64,000 nt of DNA. Origin: an uncultured virus (IMG/VR IMGVR_UViG_3300021135_000008) (Duplodnaviria; Heunggongvirae; Uroviricota; Caudoviricetes). The stretch is taken from IMG/VR virus record IMGVR_UViG_3300021135_000008. One strand, 5' to 3'. Every line of letters starts with the position of its first letter. Within the stretch, counting starts at the first letter, position 1. Shown here piece after piece: positions 1-63,925 of the stretch. Below the pieces are notes generated by a model. The model was not told the DNA's origin and made no database searches. It worked only from the letters and a program-made list of their open reading frames with translations. Made by a program: the position numbers and the translations under genes.

Positions 1-2043
1 GTCGGATTCATCGGAGGCCTCGGCGCAGGTCTCGCAGCCGACTATATGCTCGGTGACTCTACCGACAAGATAGTAAACGCCATCATCGACAAGCTGTGGC
101 CGAGCGGTGCAGCTCCGGTTGCTAAGCCAAGTCCAGCATCTGACCAGAAGATAAAGGGGAGATCAGATAGGGATCAGACCGGCGGAAAGACGTCGGGGAT
201 TACAGACCTGCGATCTGAGTACCAACAGAGCACTAAAGAACAGTCAGCAGCTGAAAGTAATCTCAGTGCCTTTGAAGAAGAGCAGAAGAAGAGTGGGTCT
301 AAGTTTACTGAAAAAGAAGACGAATTCTCTTATGGTAAGATCAAGACCTACAGCGATCCTGAGACTCAAAAGAAGTACAAAGAACTTCAGGACGCTGAGT
401 ACAAGGCTAGATCAAAGAAGACCGACATCTTCAACAAGGCTAGAATCAGAGTAGGTACCGGCAAAGACGAGCTAGGAAAAGACGACAACGGCTTTAAGAG
501 AAGCGCATCTACCTTTGGTAATCAGCTAGAAGACTCAGTACAGATGGTAGAGGCCCTCATCGACGCGGGCTATACCATCGATGAACTTCAGAAGCTTGGC
601 GGCGGGGCTAACAAAGACGCTGCGCTCAAGATCGGTGAGTATTCTTTCAATCCTGGAGCGATTCAAGCCTTATACAACAAGGTAATAGAAAAGACTCTAA
701 ACGCTCCTTCGGATATACAGGATCCAAAGAAGAAGGGTGCTAGGGAAGATCGCGATCGTCAAGGCGGGAATATATCAAAGAGTGTTGCGAGAGAAGATAG
801 AGATCACCAAGGTGGAGCTATATCTGATACCGGCACAGCTGCTCAGGCCCCAGGTGCAGGCGTCAATAGACTAGAGAGTGCTTCTGGCGTAGCTGGAGTC
901 AACGACAAGCTAATCAACGCAGACTCACTGACGTTCACTTCTAAAGAGATTAAGTTCTCGGCACAGAGCATCACGTTTGAGCAGACGGAGTCGTCAGAAG
1001 CTACTCCTGGAGTATCTGCCGGACCGTCTGGCGGAGGTGGCGGATCTGTACCTCCATCCGATGTAGTCCCGTACAACGCAAGGGAAGACCGCGACCGTCA
1101 AGGTGGTCCACCACCAGCTCCACCTGCATACAACGCAAAAGAAGACCGAGACCGTCAAGGCAGTCCACCACCAGCTCCACCTGCATACAACGCAAAAGAA
1201 GACCGAGACCGTCAAGGCAGTCCACCACCAGCACCTGTTGCGGCCCCTACTAAGTCTGCGGCTGGCTCTGGATCTACTGGTGCCGGTGCTGGTCCTGCCG
1301 GCGGTCCTGCTGGAGGCAAGCCTGTAGCTAAGCCTAACCTAGTAAGGATCAAGACCAAGGGCGGTAAGTCTGCCGAGGTCGCTGGTGCATACGCAAAGAA
1401 CTTCCAAGGATTCATCGATGAGCTAGAGTCCTCGGGCTACAACATCAGAAGACTCGGTGGCTATGCCGACAGGGCAAATGTCAACAATCCTAAAGTAAAG
1501 AGCTACCACGCTTCGGGCGCGGCTATCGACATCAACGACGACACCAACCCAAACAACTCAAGGAAGACTGACCTTCCGTCAAACGTCGGTGCGATAGCAG
1601 CTAGGTACGGTCTCGGCTGGGGTATGAACTTCAGCAAGACTCCAGACCCGATGCACTTCTCTATTGCGAAGGAAGAGCACGGCTCAGTCGACATTCCAAG
1701 GAATGGTCAGATCGAGGCAGGGGAGGCGGCTGGAGGGTCGATCACCGGAGGCGGTGGGGATTCTACCAAGACTGGAGACAAGCTTGGTGGCGGCGGTGGC
1801 ACGACTATGGCCATGGCGACGCCTACTACCGGATCTACTCTTATGAGTAAGTCGCAAGACGCAGCTGCTCCCGACATCAAGGCACCTTCTGCGCCTAGCT
1901 CAGGTACTGCCTCACCTAATGCGCCGTCGGGCGGTGGAAGCAGCGGCAGTGCAAATCTATTGGACAACAAAGAAGTCCCAGCGGTCAGGCCGTCAGACCA
2001 AGTCATCGCTAGGATGTTCGACTCGAGAGCCTTTGCGGCATAA
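1..2043 (+). CDS. Virion (tail/baseplate-associated) protein with C-terminal M15-family peptidoglycan peptidase domain; 5'-truncated by window edge
   Basis: Frame open from base 1; motif SYHASGAAIDIN...WG...DPMHFSI matches the M15 (D-Ala-D-Ala/L-Ala-D-Glu peptidase) Zn-binding pattern; low-complexity G/P/A linkers. Confidence 0.65.
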   Translation, partial: VGFIGGLGAGLAADYMLGDSTDKIVNAIIDKLWPSGAAPVAKPSPASDQKIKGRSDRDQTGGKTSGITDLRSEYQQSTKEQSAAESNLSAFEEEQKKSGSKFTEKEDEFSYGKIKTYSDPETQKKYKELQDAEYKARSKKTDIFNKARIRVGTGKDELGKDDNGFKRSASTFGNQLEDSVQMVEALIDAGYTIDELQKLGGGANKDAALKIGEYSFNPGAIQALYNKVIEKTLNAPSDIQDPKKKGAREDRDRQGGNISKSVAREDRDHQGGAISDTGTAAQAPGAGVNRLESASGVAGVNDKLINADSLTFTSKEIKFSAQSITFEQTESSEATPGVSAGPSGGGGGSVPPSDVVPYNAREDRDRQGGPPPAPPAYNAKEDRDRQGSPPPAPPAYNAKEDRDRQGSPPPAPVAAPTKSAAGSGSTGAGAGPAGGPAGGKPVAKPNLVRIKTKGGKSAEVAGAYAKNFQGFIDELESSGYNIRRLGGYADRANVNNPKVKSYHASGAAIDINDDTNPNNSRKTDLPSNVGAIAARYGLGWGMNFSKTPDPMHFSIAKEEHGSVDIPRNGQIEAGEAAGGSITGGGGDSTKTGDKLGGGGGTTMAMATPTTGSTLMSKSQDAAAPDIKAPSAPSSGTASPNAPSGGGSSGSANLLDNKEVPAVRPSDQVIARMFDSRAFAA
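1072..1236 (+). repeat. 57-bp tandem repeat x~3 (coding, YNA[R/K]EDRDRQG[G/S]PPPAPPA)
   Basis: Copies start at 1072, 1129 and 1186. Confidence 0.95.
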
Positions 2044-4110: not shown

Positions 4111-4187
4111 TGGTGATCTCAGTTGGACTCTAACCAACGACCTGCCGCTTAGAAGGCGGCTGCTCTATACAGCTGAGCTATGAGACC
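4111..4187 (-). tRNA. tRNA-Arg(TCT)
   Basis: Cloverleaf GGTCTCA...GCCGC-CTTCTAA-GCGGC...TGAGATCACCA. Confidence 0.93.
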
Positions 4188-4195
4188 GTTTTAAT

Positions 4196-4399
4196 TTACT
4201 TTTTATCGATGAAGGTCTTGAGATCTTCTGCTAAGAGGATAATGTCACTCTTAGTCGGATAGCTGGGAACTGAATCGACGGGTAAGTCGAGATCTTTCTG
4301 CATGCGAATACGCTCCATCTGAGCAAAGTACTCGCCTTGAAGCTGGCCCTGGGCGAAGTTCAGAACGTCGAGACGGATCTCGTAAGGTGTCTTAGTCAT
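4196..4399 (-). CDS. Hypothetical protein (MTKTPYEIRL...)
   Basis: AGGAG RBS before ATG at 4399. Confidence 0.7.
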   Translation of the reverse strand: MTKTPYEIRLDVLNFAQGQLQGEYFAQMERIRMQKDLDLPVDSVPSYPTKSDIILLAEDLKTFIDKK

Positions 4400-4427
4400 T
4401 TTAGTTCTCCTGTGTGATGTGTGAAGT

Positions 4428-4577
4428 TGCAACCATTTCTGTTTCGAGGCTGGTTGCCCACCCAAGAGATTAAGCCGCTAGGCGCATCTCAAGAAGTGAA
4501 TTATCGTTTGCAGATAACTTATTTATGCTTCTGTCTCGGTCCGCCTTTAACACACCTGTCGATCCTATTTCCGGCCC
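4428..4577 (-). ncRNA. ssrA: tmRNA coding piece of a two-piece permuted tmRNA; tag (A)ANDNSLLEMRLAA at 4470-4511; 3' end approximate
   Basis: Begins GGGCCGGAAATAGGATCGAC; resume frame GCA AAC GAT AAT ... CTA GCG GCT TAA. Confidence 0.92.
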
Positions 4578-4589
4578 AACATAAGAACT

Positions 4590-5036
4590 TCAAGCTTTTT
4601 TGACATGAAAGTTAAGTCCAGGATTCTTAGACTTTCTTCCTTGTCCACGTACCCATCCTTCTGGTGGATTTTGATCTGATTTTATACAACATTTTTCAAT
4701 GGGATTATTAGGATTGTGATACCAGATACTTCCTCCAGTACCAACTGGCTTCCAGTTTCCACCATTTTTAACGCGCCGATATTTCATACCTTTGCGTTTT
4801 ATATTGGCAGCAGCTGCTCCTCTTTTACCAGCTTCACTTAACATTTCTTTAACTAATTCTTCTTGAGTAAGAAGACCAGCTAAACCTTGCCAAGCTAATT
4901 TATCTTCCCATCTTCCATGTTGTTCCCAAAGTATCCTGTGAGCCTCAGCATGTTCTTCAACTGTTAACTCAATCAGATTCTCCGGATCATCAGTTCCACC
5001 CAAATGTTTGGGTATTATATGATGTATATGTTTCAT
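4590..5036 (-). CDS. HNH homing endonuclease inside the tmRNA intervening segment
   Basis: HIHHIIPKHLGGTDDPENLIELTVEEHAEAH; AT-rich; GGAGG RBS; own TATAAATA at 5055-5062. Confidence 0.88.
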   Translation of the reverse strand: MKHIHHIIPKHLGGTDDPENLIELTVEEHAEAHRILWEQHGRWEDKLAWQGLAGLLTQEELVKEMLSEAGKRGAAAANIKRKGMKYRRVKNGGNWKPVGTGGSIWYHNPNNPIEKCCIKSDQNPPEGWVRGQGRKSKNPGLNFHVKKA

Positions 5037-5091
5037 TTGAACCTCCATCGATCCTATTTATATTAGGATCGACTTAAGCTCAAAGTTCTTA

Positions 5092-5160
5092 TGGTGGACC
5101 GGGCGGGTACCGCCCCCGCGTCCAGAATGTCTATTTCGCTTTCGTCATCGACATCAGCAT
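5092..5160 (-). ncRNA. ssrA: tmRNA acceptor piece; 5' end approximate
   Basis: ...GACGCGGGGGCGGTACCCGCCCGGTCCACCA; CCGGTCC pairs with GGGCCGG of the coding piece, including the G3:U70 Ala determinant. Confidence 0.92.
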
Positions 5161-5164
5161 ATAT

Positions 5165-5195
5165 TATTTATATCACGACTTGCTATTTTTGTCAA
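5165..5195 (-). promoter_or_regulatory. Overlapping sigma70-type and T4 late promoters for tmRNA
   Basis: TTGACA-N17-TATAAA, where the -10 is part of TATAAATA. Confidence 0.8.
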
Positions 5196-5664
5196 CACCT
5201 TTTGTAGTGATCGTGTGGATCTCTTTAGTCAGCTTCTCGATCTTCTTGACTAGCTTGTTGTTCTCGTGAAGCATCTCAAGAAGGATGGCCGTCTGCTCGG
5301 CTGCGATCTGCTGACGCTGGGCCGCAGCCAGCGCTAGGTCTTCTCGGTGCTGGGCGTCTGCCTCGGCGTGTGCCTTGTCTCGGTCGGCCTGTCGAGTCTG
5401 TGCCAGCAAGATCAATGGTGCCGCATAGGCTGCCTGAGTAGAGAAGGCGAGGTTGAGAAGGATGAACGGGTAGACGTCGAAGTCGGTGTAGCCGAAGACG
5501 TTGAGTCCCATCCAGATAAGCACCAAGGCTGTCTGGATGATCAAGAAGATCGGGGTACCGAAGAACCGTGCGAACCTCTCAGCCAAGATAGCAAAGCCGT
5601 CGTCGCCGAACGGACTCTGAAGGTGGACGTGTGGAAAGTGGAATCTAAAGTAGTTGTCTTTCAT
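5173..5664 (-). CDS. DUF1003-like membrane protein
   Basis: FDVYPFILLNLAFSTQAAYAAPLILLAQTRQADRD. Confidence 0.85.
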   Translation of the reverse strand: MKDNYFRFHFPHVHLQSPFGDDGFAILAERFARFFGTPIFLIIQTALVLIWMGLNVFGYTDFDVYPFILLNLAFSTQAAYAAPLILLAQTRQADRDKAHAEADAQHREDLALAAAQRQQIAAEQTAILLEMLHENNKLVKKIEKLTKEIHTITTKGVDKNSKS

Positions 5665-14993: not shown

Positions 14994-15068
14994 TGGTGGA
15001 CCCGGTAGGACTCGAACCTACACTCGTGCTCTTATGAGGAGCCGGCTTCACCTTTAAGCTACAGGTCC
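14994..15068 (-). tRNA. tRNA(CAT), probably Ile2 (lysidine type); Met not excluded
   Basis: GGACCTG...GCTC-CTCATAA-GAGC...CGGGTCCACCA; C4:G69 and C5:G68 as in TilS substrates. Confidence 0.85.
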
Positions 15069-15075
15069 CTATTAC

Positions 15076-15564
15076 TTATTTCCGTGCCTCTTTTGGATAG
15101 GTCAGCACGATGATACGAGGCTCGATGTACTGCGGCTCTACCTTGTCAGATCCAGGAACTTTGCAGAGGACCCAAGTACCCTCAGCCGATGCTGGGCTGA
15201 ACAGACCGTTCGGGTCAGCTTGAGGGATACTCATACGACCCTCGATAGGACGCATTGGATTGGTGTACTGAGTAGCAGACGAGATGCCGTAGCCGAGGCT
15301 GTCGCATACCTTCTCACCGATGTTTCCGTTCATGTCACCCGCGAGGTAGGTGTATGTCGGAAGCATCTTGTCGCGAAGCTCGAGGATGTCCTTGAGGATA
15401 CGCTTCTCGGCGAACTTCGTGATGGCGGGCATTCCCACCGACATGTTGCCCTGCTGAGAGAGCGCTTCCTGTGCCTGACGCTGAACTTGGTCAGCAGACG
15501 GTCCTGGAGGCTCACAGCCTGCGAGGCCGAGAGACATGATGCCGATCATGATATACTTATTCAT
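15076..15564 (-). CDS. Lipoprotein, unknown function
   Basis: Lipobox LAGC; QADPNGLFS. Confidence 0.8.
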   Translation of the reverse strand: MNKYIMIGIMSLGLAGCEPPGPSADQVQRQAQEALSQQGNMSVGMPAITKFAEKRILKDILELRDKMLPTYTYLAGDMNGNIGEKVCDSLGYGISSATQYTNPMRPIEGRMSIPQADPNGLFSPASAEGTWVLCKVPGSDKVEPQYIEPRIIVLTYPKEARK

Positions 15565-15574
15565 TTTTCACCTG

Positions 15575-15892
15575 TTAGTTTGCGACTGAGAAGTAGAAGG
15601 TCTGAAGATCTGCTGGCAAGCGGTTCTTGTCAAAGATCTCGAAGCGATGGATGATGAGTGCCTTCATCGCACCCTTGTGCTCAGCGTCCGCAGTATTGTA
15701 CTCACGCTGCAGGTCGTAGAGGTCACGAAGCATCCCGTCGTTGTATGCCTGACTCTGCTTGAAGGTGTCGTAGCGGACCTGCTCGTAGCGAGGAGCAAAG
15801 AACTTATAACCCTCATAGCTGAGGAGGCTGAATATCATGATCACAGCGACAAACAAGATGAACGCTCCGACCGCACTAAAGAAGTCTCTCAT
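15575..15892 (-). CDS. Membrane-anchored hypothetical protein
   Basis: GGAG RBS, N-terminal TM. Confidence 0.75.
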   Translation of the reverse strand: MRDFFSAVGAFILFVAVIMIFSLLSYEGYKFFAPRYEQVRYDTFKQSQAYNDGMLRDLYDLQREYNTADAEHKGAMKALIIHRFEIFDKNRLPADLQTFYFSVAN

Positions 15893-15909
15893 TGTATACT
15901 CTCCAAAGT

Positions 15910-15986
15910 TGGTGCCCACGGTGGGGGTCGAACCCACACTTCCAAAATTTTAAGTCTTGTACCTCTGCCTATTGGGCTACGTGGGC
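15910..15986 (-). tRNA. tRNA-Leu(TAA), short variable loop
   Basis: GCCCACG...CAAGA-CTTAAAA-TTTTG-GAAGT-GTGGG..CCA. Confidence 0.88.
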
Positions 15987-61225: not shown

Positions 61226-61309
61226 GGAGGTATGCGAGCAAGGTGCTCAAAGAGTCTTGAAAACTCTGCCACCGCAAGGTTGATGGTTCGATTCCTTGTA
61301 CCTCCGCCA
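61226..61309 (+). tRNA. tRNA-Ser(TGA)
   Basis: AGAGT-CTTGAAA-ACTCT, long variable arm, GCCA end. Confidence 0.8.
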
Positions 61310-61315
61310 ATTCAC

Positions 61316-61342
61316 GGTCACGTAGCTCAGCTGTATAGAGCA
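61316..61342 (+). repeat. 27-bp duplicate of the 5' end of tRNA-Arg(CCT)
   Basis: GGTCACGTAGCTCAGCTGTATAGAGCA, identical to 61707-61733. Confidence 0.95.
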
Positions 61343-61381
61343 TAGGTATAAATAAACCGATGCTACTGCATAGGAGTTAAT

Positions 61382-61729
61382 ATGCCGAATCAATTTACAA
61401 AAGCTAAACACCTTGGGCTTCCTCAACCAAAAGTATATCATTCTAAATCTTTAGAAGAAGTATTCAAGAAAGATTCTACTTATCTTCCACAAAAACTAAG
61501 ATCTAGGTTTCTAAAAGAGAATTTAGTTCCGTATGAATGTACAGAATGTGGTAACACTGGTGAATGGAATAACAAGCCTTTAGTTTTACAGTTAGATCAT
61601 ATTAACGGAGTAAATACGGATAATAGGATTGAAAATCTTAGATGGCTTTGTCCGTCTTGCCATACACAACAACCAACGTATGGTAAAAAGAACTACACAT
61701 ATCAGAGGTCACGTAGCTCAGCTGTATAG
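61382..61729 (+). CDS. HNH endonuclease
   Basis: CTECG..LQLDHINGVNTDNRIENLRWLCPSCH; TATAAATA at 61347-61354; AT-rich. Confidence 0.92.
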   Translation: MPNQFTKAKHLGLPQPKVYHSKSLEEVFKKDSTYLPQKLRSRFLKENLVPYECTECGNTGEWNNKPLVLQLDHINGVNTDNRIENLRWLCPSCHTQQPTYGKKNYTYQRSRSSAV

Positions 61730-61783
61730 AGCACGAATTTCCTAAATTCGGGGTCGCAGGTTAGAGTCCTGCCGTGATCACCA
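61707..61783 (+). tRNA. tRNA-Arg(CCT)
   Basis: CGAAT-TTCCTAA-ATTCG; CCA end. Confidence 0.92.
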
Positions 61784-61788
61784 ACGAC

Positions 61789-61863
61789 GGTCCGATGGCG
61801 CAGCGGTAGCGCAGCTCCTTTACACGGAGAAGGTCGGGGGTTCGATCCCCTCTCGGACTACCA
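61789..61863 (+). tRNA. tRNA-Val(TAC)
   Basis: CTCC-TTTACAC-GGAG; GGTTCGATCCC; CCA. Confidence 0.93.
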
Positions 61864-62092
61864 ACAACTGAGGATATAAGATGAAGCTTATCGAATACAA
61901 AGACAAGTTCGTTACTGAGCCGTTCTGGCTCTGGGTAAACGACAAGGACAAGGCACTCTCTCCCTCTTTCTCTTCTCAGAAGAAGGCCGAGAAGTGGATG
62001 GACCGCATCCTCCTCGAGATCAGGAAGAAGGTCAAGAGGGGTTGACAAATAATCCAACCTGTGGTATGATATATCATAATGAGGATTTAGCC

Positions 62093-62497
62093 ATGTCAAT
62101 GCACCTAGCACCAGTCTACTTCACGACCACCGGCTCGACCAAGCGCAAGCCGTCCAAGAGCAAGAAGCTCGCTGAGTCTACCGCCAAGCATGAGCAGTGG
62201 CTGCGCGACCGCGGCCTGCATCCCGAGCAGCGTAACCTGCAGCGAGCATTCAAGGGCAAGCACAGTATCGCCCTGCCTGACCTGCGAGTCGAGACCAAGT
62301 ACGAGCTGTCCAACGGCATCGGCAACGGCTTCAAGCGCGGCATCATGGAGAACCTACACAAGGAGTCGCCTGAGGTTCAGAAGGCTATCCTTGAGAAGGC
62401 TCAGCGTACCACGGTAGCCTATAACAAGGGACCTATACAATATTTTAGTCCCGAGTCAGACAAGACGAGCCTCGGCTCGGGATCGCGGAGGGGATGA
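62093..62497 (+). CDS. Conserved basic hypothetical protein
   Basis: MSMHL..AYNKGPIQY; promoter at about 62042. Confidence 0.75.
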   Translation: MSMHLAPVYFTTTGSTKRKPSKSKKLAESTAKHEQWLRDRGLHPEQRNLQRAFKGKHSIALPDLRVETKYELSNGIGNGFKRGIMENLHKESPEVQKAILEKAQRTTVAYNKGPIQYFSPESDKTSLGSGSRRG

Positions 62498-62691
62498 TGG
62501 ACTACGTCGACATTCAAGCGTGTGACCCTACGGGCATCTGGCGTACGTACAGCAACACCCCAGCTGGTAACTCACAGCGTATCCGTCAGCTCATGCAGGA
62601 GCTCAAGGGCTCTAAGAACTGGCAGGTGCGTGCAGTGGATAAAAAAGGAAATATCGTCGACTTTTTATGTTGATGCTGTATAAATAAAACT

Positions 62692-62799
62692 ATGAACAAG
62701 ACAGTTAAACATCCTCTTCCCTATAATATGCCGAGCGCGTTCTGCGTCATTGCCCAGACATGGGATAATGGTCGCGAACCAACGCGAGGGCGATCTTGA
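62692..62799 (+). CDS. Putative attenuator leader peptide, 35 aa, containing all 20 amino acids
   Basis: MNKTVKHPLPYNMPSAFCVIAQTWDNGREPTRGRS; ATG 5 nt after TATAAATA (62679-62686). Confidence 0.65.
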   Translation: MNKTVKHPLPYNMPSAFCVIAQTWDNGREPTRGRS

Positions 62800-62824
62800 A
62801 TATCTGACTCAGAAGAGTAAGTTC

Positions 62825-62867
62825 AAGGGGCGCCCACAGTAAAGAGTGAGGCGCCCCTTCTCTTTTT
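62825..62867 (+). terminator. Intrinsic terminator with overlapping antiterminator
   Basis: AAGGGGCGCC...GGCGCCCCTT-CTCTTTTT. Confidence 0.8.
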
Positions 62868-62939
62868 AGTTGACAAATAACTCAGACTATGGTACTATCT
62901 TAATATAATCTGAGTGGCTGATTGACATTGTTAAACGAA

Positions 62940-63388
62940 AGACAACTTCGGTTGTCTCTCCATGGATACACCAGTGGCCGTCCGTGTCTTAAAGTACGGC
63001 GTAATCACGTGTGACACCAATCTGGTGTATCCTTGTAGAGACAATTGTTGTCTCTCCACAGATACTACACGGGGTACCGTGCATGGACGCATGCACTATG
63101 GATGATAGGGCCATCTTGCCATCCTGAGACAACCCGATCAATGGCTAAGGAAGGGAAGCACCCGACTCCGAAATTCGATTCTATGTAGTATCTTTGCAGA
63201 GACAATGGAATTTGGACGGTACTGGCCAGCGCGCTGGTATCTGTGTCCTCTGGCAGGGACACGAACGAGGGATGCCAGTCCCACTAGTAGCCAAACAACT
63301 AATCGTGGCAGCGTGGCACTGCCGGTGAAGCACCTACGGAGATGGTAGGAATGCGGTTGATCATCGATCATCAAACAGAACAAATGCC
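62940..63388 (+). ncRNA. Candidate structured ncRNA(s) upstream of the tRNA cluster
   Basis: No credible ORF; long closing stems, repeated TTGTCTCT/AGAGACAA, complementary hairpin loops; sigma70-type promoter at 62870. Confidence 0.65.
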
Positions 63389-63397
63389 AACTAATTC

Positions 63398-63473
63398 GAT
63401 CACTTAGCTCATTAGGTAGAGCAGCGGTCTTTTAAGCCGTAGGTGCTGGGTTCGAGTCCCAGAGTGATCACCA
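63398..63473 (+). tRNA. tRNA-Lys(TTT)
   Basis: GCGGT-CTTTTAA-GCCGT; CCA. Confidence 0.95.
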
Positions 63474-63482
63474 ATAGATAAC

Positions 63483-63557
63483 GCATCCTTAGCTTAGCGG
63501 TAGAGCGCTACGTTGACATCGTAGAGGTCGTAGGTTCAATCCCTGCAGGATGCACCA
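63483..63557 (+). tRNA. tRNA-Val(GAC)
   Basis: CTACG-TTGACAT-CGTAG; CCA. Confidence 0.95.
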
Positions 63558-63685
63558 AGTTTGTATGAGACGATTCGAGTACTCGACTGCCAATTCGTTG
63601 AACCCAGAATCGAAAGGTGGAAAAGACTCTGGTCTACTATCCTCGTCGTGCCACCTTAACATCATACGATGATATTTATGAATAA

Positions 63686-63762
63686 GCGGCGTTCTTCTAA
63701 TGGAATAGGAATCCTCCCTTTCAAGGAGTTCAATATCGGTTCGAGTCCGATACGCCGCGCCA
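63686..63762 (+). tRNA. tRNA-Glu(TTC)
   Basis: CTCC-CTTTCAA-GGAG; CCA. Confidence 0.92.
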
Positions 63763-63768
63763 GTATAA

Positions 63769-63843
63769 CAGGGTGTAGCTCAATGGTAGAGTGCTGTGTT
63801 TGGAACGCAGATGCTGGAGGTTCGAGTCCTCTCACCCTGACCA
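63769..63843 (+). tRNA. tRNA-Pro(TGG)
   Basis: CTGTG-TTTGGAA-CGCAG; CCA. Confidence 0.93.
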
Positions 63844-63849
63844 ATACCC

Positions 63850-63925
63850 GCTCCCATCATCTAGCGGCTTAGGATACCCGCCTCTCACGCGGATCACACC
63901 GGTTCGAATCCGGTTGGGAGCACCA
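63850..63925 (+). tRNA. tRNA-Glu(CTC)
   Basis: CCGC-CTCTCAC-GCGG; CCA. Confidence 0.93.

Follow-up and report, generated by a model that had tools for sequence, protein, structure and literature searches.

Closest described systems

Permuted two-piece tmRNA has been published for a phage, Methylophilales phage Melnitz (PMC9004378). In the accessible part of a 2025 tmRNA database paper, the only spacer contents named are a repetitive element and a gene for tRNA-Ala, and the endonuclease genes reported in tmRNA are LAGLIDADG genes within group I introns in the T-loop (36/883; PMC11915505). Further precedents are found in T4-like phages, namely the MobA–E nucleases, intronless homing, and SegB in a tRNA cluster (PMC2988022, PMC2790892). 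For I-TevI, a copy of the binding site with autorepression is documented, and hairpins covering the ribosome-binding site are known for T4 endonucleases (PMC2988022); for MobE, a model with a conserved binding block and a polymorphic nick site has been proposed (PMC2790892).

Here, we analyze a tmRNA locus in a 64,000-nt stretch of DNA from an uncultured virus (IMGVR_UViG_3300021135_000008), hereinafter the window. It shares with Melnitz the gene order, the acceptor stem, the tag, and the alphaproteobacterial type, and its tmRNA likewise lies upstream of the gene for a late-transcription coactivator. It differs from known permuted tmRNAs (RF04321/RF01849) by a 514-nt spacer containing a nuclease gene. 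What it has in common with the LAGLIDADG-bearing group I introns is a homing endonuclease gene within tmRNA that would be removed at the RNA level, whereas in the window there is neither a ribozyme nor ligation, the gene is permuted, the nuclease is of the HNH type, and the carrier is a phage.

As far as the accessible texts on MobA–E go, the likeness comprises an N-terminal HNH domain joined to a predicted distinct C-terminal domain, the lack of an intron, a late promoter with a hairpin covering the ribosome-binding site, and a predicted immunity that derives from polymorphism beside a conserved binding block. In contrast to the Mob genes, the window gene is situated inside a single RNA gene, in the segment that RNA maturation would remove; its predicted cut lies directly at the insertion, in the manner of enzymes encoded in introns, and not hundreds of base pairs away; and its cassette carries both strands of the acceptor stem. 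The presumed binding-site copy resembles that of I-TevI in overlapping a late promoter and in having no cut motif at the right distance, but I-TevI is a GIY-YIG enzyme encoded in a group I intron, while the window copy is an inverted pair forming a putative operator.

In Aeh1, mobE splits nrdA, and archaeal enzyme-spliced introns contain endonuclease genes. Fractured genes with split inteins (PMC2677866) similarly have an endonuclease gene between halves that assemble without cis self-splicing. All these cases split proteins or are re-ligated, whereas tmRNA is naturally two-piece and the site pre-exists. By analogy, the window nuclease resembles an intronless HNH homing endonuclease in what appears to be a new kind of site. 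In the literature available without subscription, we encountered no report of permuted tmRNA with an endonuclease gene in its spacer, and a text search of the supplement to PMC11915505 gave no match. Such a site would add to introns, inteins, and intergenic gaps one more harmless landing place, a segment discarded without splicing.

The permuted tmRNA gene

The promoter-like stretch, the acceptor piece, the spacer, and the coding piece follow each other in this order on the minus strand (Table 1). A preliminary description of this DNA had claimed a permuted two-piece tmRNA with a full acceptor stem including G3:U70 and a spacer of about 515 nt, and all three claims held. The Rfam family RF04321 (tmRNA_permuted) matches 5152–4470(-) with 57 bits against the gathering score of 47 (E = 3.6e-10 in a local search), its alignment taking the whole nuclease gene as a single insertion. 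The acceptor stem pairs at 7/7 positions, G3·U70 among them. The acceptor piece consists of a pairing arm, the T-arm, the acceptor 3' strand CCGGTCC (5102–5096), the discriminator A, and CCA, with the ACCA end at 5092, while the tag frame translates to ANDNSLLEMRLAA followed by a stop, with the hydrophobic AA-stop ending of the RF04321 type. Hence, the permuted order, the 7-bp stem, G3·U70, CCA, and the T-arm are all present. The two pieces co-fold via their outer arms (-70.5 kcal/mol), and the fold of the whole precursor has z = -8.9. The locus is confirmed as a genuine member of the permuted tmRNA family. A 100% identical protein is encoded at the same locus in five other contigs (L001–L003, L269, L270), so an assembly artifact is unlikely.

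Table 1. Features of the tmRNA locus in the window
Feature	Position	Strand	Basis and details
tmRNA promoter	5165..5195	-	TTGACA 5195-5190, 17 bp, TATAAATA 5172-5165; by eye
Acceptor piece	5092..5162, 5' end approximate	-	Rfam alignment and co-folding with coding piece
Closing stem, 5' arm	5076..5092	-	Folding; can alternatively pair over the endonuclease ribosome-binding region in the nascent transcript
Intervening segment (IVS) with endonuclease cassette	4578..5091, 514 nt	-	Sequence; 74 nt in L281
Inverted repeat, putative operator and RNA hairpin	5047..5073	-	Around internal late-promoter motif TATAAATA 5062-5055
Shine-Dalgarno GGAGG of endonuclease gene	5042..5046	-	Sequence
HNH endonuclease gene, 148 aa	4590..5036	-	ATG with Shine-Dalgarno; PF01844, phrog_655
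Closing stem, 3' arm	4581..4597	-	Folding; overlaps last HNH codons and stop (4592-4590)
Junction, resistant version of predicted target	4558..4581	-	Acceptor 5' strand 4577-4571, D-loop 4570-4558
Coding piece	4429..4577, 3' end approximate	-	Starts GGGCCGG; tag frame 4511-4470; terminal paired element 4457-4429

Of the checks that the preliminary description had proposed, those amenable to computation spoke for it; the covariance model RF04321 accepts the locus, as stated above. ARAGORN called no tmRNA at 4428–5195, and RF01849 (alpha_tmRNA) matched only piecewise (44 and 13.7 bits, both below the cut-off of 50); on the HNH-less allele L281 the latter model scores 113.6 bits. Standard tmRNA callers miss nuclease-bearing genes, as exemplified by ARAGORN in the window and by several carriers below the Rfam cut-off. 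A group I intron-borne endonuclease in tmRNA was considered and rejected: the T-loop is uninterrupted and contains no ribozyme core, the gene is permuted and not of the standard form, and no Rfam intron family, RF00028 included, matches at 4200–5400 up to E = 10.

The ends of the spacer form 17 consecutive pairs, two of them G·U, without a bulge (-21.3 kcal/mol). The predicted pairing of the ends was thereby recovered, but not the looping-out of a complete open reading frame (ORF), as the last HNH codons and the stop lie within the 3' arm of the closing stem, the stop being 12 nt from the coding piece. The closing stem is common to such spacers generally and is visible by eye in HNH-less ones as well. 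The ORF and its leader occupy the whole spacer, and the G+C content of the cassette (about 39–40%) is below that just downstream (about 45–50%) and just upstream (47–62%). In 22/22 carriers, the ORF ends at most 12 nt before the processing site or beyond it (8/22). The "safe site" would thus carry a higher cost than the preliminary description implied, since the ORF overlaps the processing site and is read through it in these eight carriers.

RNase P is expected to cut at the junction of the spacer and the coding piece, and it may favor the leader bases found there. According to the literature, RNase P and tRNase Z "probably" process permuted tmRNA (PMC3985003). Small non-nuclease ORFs were observed in other phage tmRNA spacers, including an 86–87-aa cysteine-rich protein in L362 (1029–1292, minus strand), a 77-aa hydrophobic ORF in L149, and shorter ORFs following a Shine-Dalgarno sequence in L136, L148, L159, and L170.

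The HNH protein and its homologs

The protein, scanned as a 152-aa version of the ORF, matches PF01844 (25.9 bits, cut-off 21.4) and the phrog_655 family "homing endonuclease" (E = 7e-15). It is composed of an N-terminal HNH core (H5, H6, N20, H29, H33), a long helix, a basic linker, and a small C-terminal beta domain at residues ~100–135. The catalytic residues of the HNH domain are present, and the gene is outside any self-splicing intron or intein. At E ≤ 0.001 we found 831 homologs, about 72 of them full length. N20, H29, and H33 are invariant across the alignment of 72 homologs, as are W105, C117, P125, W128, and G131 of the C-terminal block in the alignment of full-length homologs. The median dN/dS is 0.146 and the maximum 0.34 for 82 usable pairs of 136, the rest being saturated or near-identical. 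As judged from these sequences, the HNH gene is intact and evolves under purifying selection.

In the AlphaFold model (pLDDT 82.5, pTM 0.52), the HNH core is followed by the long helix, a linker modeled with low confidence, and the small beta domain. Its HNH core overlays known HNH cores with an rmsd of 0.6–1.3 over 33–42 residues (Z 3.5–4.0; Foldseek E-values non-significant). A PDB fold search returned no matches at E ≤ 0.001, and a comparison with 48,161 chains gave none at Z ≥ 5; the overlay is limited to the short HNH core, and these searches barely probed the C-terminal domain. A Pfam search with the C-terminal domain produced no match, whereas the ESM Atlas yielded clusters without names and a weak NUMOD3 lead at 0.86. 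The model is consistent with a conserved, separate C-terminal beta domain, which is assumed to bind DNA.

No close full-length homolog was found in cultured phages; among 222 records, 12 reach a query coverage of 80%, with 29–34% identity among the matches listed, and the homolog in S-SKS1 has no adjoining tmRNA. Ten matches in bacterial genome contigs are partial, mostly to the N-terminal domain, and none of the ten is localized beside a tmRNA.

Localization of the homologs

The position of the HNH gene in relatives, a comparison called for by the preliminary description, is mostly the tmRNA spacer for full-length homologs. Among 19 full-length viral loci (L189–L207, three identical to the window), 17 have the gene between both tmRNA pieces. 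In L205 the upstream part is cut off and the coding piece follows the nuclease gene, and in L206 a gene of the main family is located just upstream of an intact short-spacer tmRNA, together with an operator-like hairpin (1450–2190). All 11 metagenome loci have the same site, L279 being seen from the 3' side only. Rfam confirms the tmRNA of carriers L004–L006, L192, L195, L198, L200, L202, L204, L207, and L233, and that of L199 on the coding side only; L194, L201, L203, L205, L208, L209, and L212 are below the gathering score and were assigned by parsing the stem, the D-loop, and the tag, with L205 and L212 read by eye. Homologs sharing only the N-terminal HNH domain are mostly found elsewhere, as expected for modular homing endonucleases.

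The same spacer harbors a second HNH clade with another C-terminal domain (L208, L209, L224, L233, and probably L257). Its spacers are 482–531 nt long, and its C-terminus is characterized by the motifs W-F-N...EGQ-F/Y-SL and GRL-K/R-SVM. The promoter copies differ in this clade, its target is probably another one, and L233 has no leader hairpin.

Several further arrangements were observed. In L237 (1400–2420) and L240 (1400–2240), the acceptor piece is truncated in or after the T-arm, and behind it come a related HNH gene with a different C-terminal domain, a complete replacement acceptor piece, and a short-spacer tmRNA; the same gene may be invaded here by a second route, perhaps with the T-arm as the target. 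In L221 (1133–1990), an HNH gene is head-to-head with a permuted tmRNA. In L029, a group I intron match (1582–1805) is situated just upstream of a homolog sharing only the N-terminal domain.

Empty alleles and exchange of the cassette

HNH-less alleles with a short spacer, which had been suggested as a comparison, are the rule in related phages, and the near-identical L281 has one. Pattern scans identified 114 unique HNH-less alleles of phage permuted tmRNA among the matches listed, with spacers of 4–264 nt (median 80.5). Nuclease carriers are rare: in two pattern scans, they account for 2 of 150 resolved alleles among the matches listed (160 loci with full flanks).

L281 belongs to the same phage lineage as the window, with flanks identical at 94.8% over 2587 bases and at 89.1% over 2913 bases. 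Its spacer contains no HNH gene, and its acceptor stem is different but self-compensated. From the promoter to the tag stop, the spacer aside, the two alleles differ by two single bases and two complementary acceptor-stem triplets, and from the D-loop through the tag stop the coding pieces are identical. The exchanged unit is thus the spacer with both acceptor-stem strands, which flank the spacer only owing to the permuted gene order. In L271 the situation is reversed, with a cassette almost like that of the window but another tmRNA around it: the protein is 83% identical and the spacer leader near-identical, but the tmRNA body is only 0.64 similar. Both empty cognate alleles and co-exchange of flanking bases are therefore seen in these comparisons.

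On a larger scale, carriers are scattered across the tmRNA tree. In a tmRNA-body tree (n = 234; about 145 nt, FastTree, no shuffle control), 22 carriers require 19 state changes, and the nearest tmRNA is an empty one for 15 of them. Protein identity only weakly tracks tmRNA similarity (rho 0.2). All 22 carriers retain the 7/7 acceptor stem with G3·U70 across many stem sequences.

Four empty alleles (L164, L287, L288, L145) have an altered acceptor stem or the spacing typical of carriers, and are possibly former carriers or resistant alleles. The terminal paired element of the coding piece (4457–4429 in the window, about 3105–3135 in L281) has been exchanged as a unit between alleles that are otherwise identical, with its CCTCGAAACAGAA core conserved; in Melnitz, the 3' domain of ssrA is described as a glutamine riboswitch (PMC9004378).

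Predicted target at the junction

Alleles were aligned at the D-loop TCGA, so that positions -22 to -20 cover the final two bases of the spacer plus the base with which the coding piece begins. At this fixed distance before the D-loop TAGGATCGA, ATG is present in 115 of 205 empty alleles (seven of 212 were left out as too short) and in none of 18 main-clade carriers (p = 1e-6); the motif was selected post hoc, the target was derived from the same pattern, and, as the carriers share ancestry, this and the following p-values overstate independence. Within the GGCRGTA T-loop class the corresponding numbers are 88/106 and 0/10 (p = 1.6e-7), and outside it 27/99 and 0/8 (p = 0.2, not significant). 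The longer motif ATGGGG is found at the junction of 103/205 empty alleles and 0/18 carriers.

The motif is lost in different ways. Fourteen main-clade carriers retain AT but have altered spacing (12, 14, 15, or 16 nt, the normal one being 13), whereas the four carriers with normal spacing all lack AT, having TT in the window, AC in L204, and CT in L277 and L278 (p = 3e-4 for the contrast, or p = 1.5e-3 with the last two counted once). In the protein tree, these AT changes belong to three different branches. At the window junction, in addition to the TT before the stem, stem position 4 is occupied by C and not by G. An initial rule, "GGGG plus 13-nt D segment" (1/22 carriers, 136/212 empty alleles), was dropped because of the exception L204. 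In P0012, which has C at stem position 4, and apparently also in P0048, AT is retained although the spacing is normal (protein tails decoded by eye for both). AT alone is hence not the whole rule, and the determinant may span ATGGGG.

For 13 of 18 carriers the nearest empty allele has the junction motif, and the empty L164 already has the "immune" junction of L271. Second-clade carriers L208 and L209 keep ATG. The Rfam consensus of alphaproteobacterial tmRNA bears the same AU-GGGG...GAAAUAGGAUCGAC junction. We consider the AT/GGGG junction beside the conserved D-loop somewhat more likely than not to be the exact target. The T-arm was rejected as a target of the window enzyme, being identical in the window and L281.

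Promoters and regulation

At the tmRNA promoter, the -10 region TATAAAT overlaps TATAAATA, which doubles as a sigma-70-like -10 and a late-promoter motif and which we take to be the T4 late-promoter consensus. The same layout is repeated in L281 and many relatives. The promoter claimed earlier is thus visible by eye in its elements, but was not called by a sigma-70 scanner in the region upstream of the tmRNA.

The right arm of the inverted repeat in the endonuclease leader (5059–5048) copies the tmRNA D-loop word. ATAGGATCGA with at most one mismatch occurs no more than 70 nt from the start of 17 out of 23 tmRNA-spacer genes and one out of 62 other homologs (p = 5e-12), the single exception being L206, beside a tmRNA; the 62 include L257, a second-clade spacer carrier with four mismatches, and moving it results in 17/24 and 1/61. 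None of the listed promoter copies of the D-loop word has ATG at the target distance. This suggests autorepression of the endonuclease at the D-loop copy in its own promoter, a prediction for which we see even chances.

In the nascent RNA, the leader pairs over a part of the Shine-Dalgarno sequence and the start region (-25 kcal/mol, z = -6.8), while the transcript from the internal promoter has no such leader pairing (z = 0.5). As the ORFs end near or past the processing site, translation of the excised spacer would in many carriers be inefficient or lack a stop codon, which makes a separate late transcript the likelier mRNA.

Proposed mechanism and alternative explanations

Starting from the anatomy, the intact gene, its presence and absence, the co-exchange of stem strands, and the two statistical patterns, all read from the sequences, we infer a cycle of processing, late expression, binding, nicking, homing, and autorepression. 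The locus is probably a homing endonuclease cassette free of introns, which would be cut out during RNA maturation. Homing of the tmRNA locus had been suggested in the preliminary description, and the comparisons support it. Once the precursor has adopted the tRNA-like fold, the tRNA-processing nucleases of the host would remove the spacer without ligation, so that the insert would cost little. The nuclease would be made late from its own TATAAATA promoter, with the hairpin covering the ribosome-binding region in longer transcripts. In a mixed infection, the C-terminal domain would bind an empty allele at its conserved D-loop sequence AATAGGATCGA, placing the nick by the HNH domain at a fixed distance upstream, at the AT|GGGG junction of spacer and coding piece. 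Repair would then copy the spacer together with both acceptor-stem strands flanking it, so pairing would be kept, and carriers would be immune due to altered AT/G4 bases or D-loop spacing. The protein could also repress itself at the promoter D-loop copies, which have no cut motif.

A broader proposal, toward which we lean slightly, is that endonucleases from at least two HNH clades, differing in their C-terminal domains, have repeatedly settled in the permuted tmRNA spacers of aquatic T4-like phages, a hitherto undescribed niche equivalent to an intron but removed by ordinary tRNA maturation. The main clade would target the processing junction, repress itself via the D-loop copy, and drive diversification of the acceptor stem and the D-loop, carrying both strands as a self-compensating immunity module; the host ssrA site may be cut as well. 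Selfish genes may, as suggested here, shape the most conserved part of phage tmRNA, i.e., the acceptor stem and the D-loop spacing. For a nuclease of this small size, the system offers a target that is predicted sharply, alleles that occur naturally in sensitive and resistant forms, and a candidate operator.

Could the nuclease mainly attack the chromosomal ssrA gene of the host, or the ssrA of rival phages while making no copy of itself? The phage tmRNA would then replace that of the host, and the spacer would link a poison to a resistant substitute. The junction in the Rfam alphaproteobacterial consensus makes host genes probable substrates, and this reading is equally compatible with the pattern of immunity and with the copy at the operator. 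Still, both the exchange between unrelated phage tmRNA bodies and the rarity of carriers would be left unexplained, and T4-like phages commonly degrade host DNA anyway. We consider this explanation unlikely; host ssrA cutting can be a side effect of the homing cassette. It is very unlikely, in our estimate, that the HNH gene is passive cargo with another target in a tolerant spacer, the D-loop copy being a leftover duplication from the first insertion. Other small ORFs do occur in phage spacers (77 aa in L149, 86 aa in L362), the same family is found just outside the tmRNA in L206, and T4 free-standing endonucleases usually cut hundreds to thousands of base pairs away (PMC2988022, in its accessible part). 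Loss of the junction motif by several routes is, however, not predicted by such tolerance, and a leftover copy should decay, whereas it stays within one mismatch while pS reaches 0.4–0.65 in the closest distinct pairs, an argument limited by hairpin pairing, which could partly hold the copy.

The overlap of the ORF with the closing stem, and its passage through the 5' processing site in 8/22 carriers, mean that translation could block maturation, in line with an insert that broke the tmRNA, leaving a pseudogene or an RNA that dominantly inhibits the system of the host. The complete stems with G3·U70 in all 22 carriers (a tag-like motif having been a precondition of the carrier parse) and the identity of the window coding piece, from the D-loop to the tag stop, to that of the empty L281 make this highly implausible. 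The homing cassette in an intact tmRNA gene is the explanation that we prefer.

Genomic neighborhood

In this aquatic phage, the neighborhood of the locus is T4-like and includes gp32, gp59, the gp33 coactivator, and tRNA-Arg. The top match of gp32 among cultured phages is Melnitz (59%). No SmpB gene was found in either of the two virus records searched. Directly upstream of the tmRNA is a gene for a DUF1003 membrane protein (5173–5664, minus strand), whose last codons overlap the tmRNA promoter. A 665-aa ORF at 46–2043 (plus strand), opposite in strand to its neighbors, contains repeated (A/K)EDRDRQG motifs, and its C-terminus gives the impression of a peptidase-type domain. Eleven tRNA genes are localized in three places (4111–4187, 14994–15986, and 61226–63925), and the same unusual T-loop, GGTT-A-GA, is seen in two tRNA-Arg genes.
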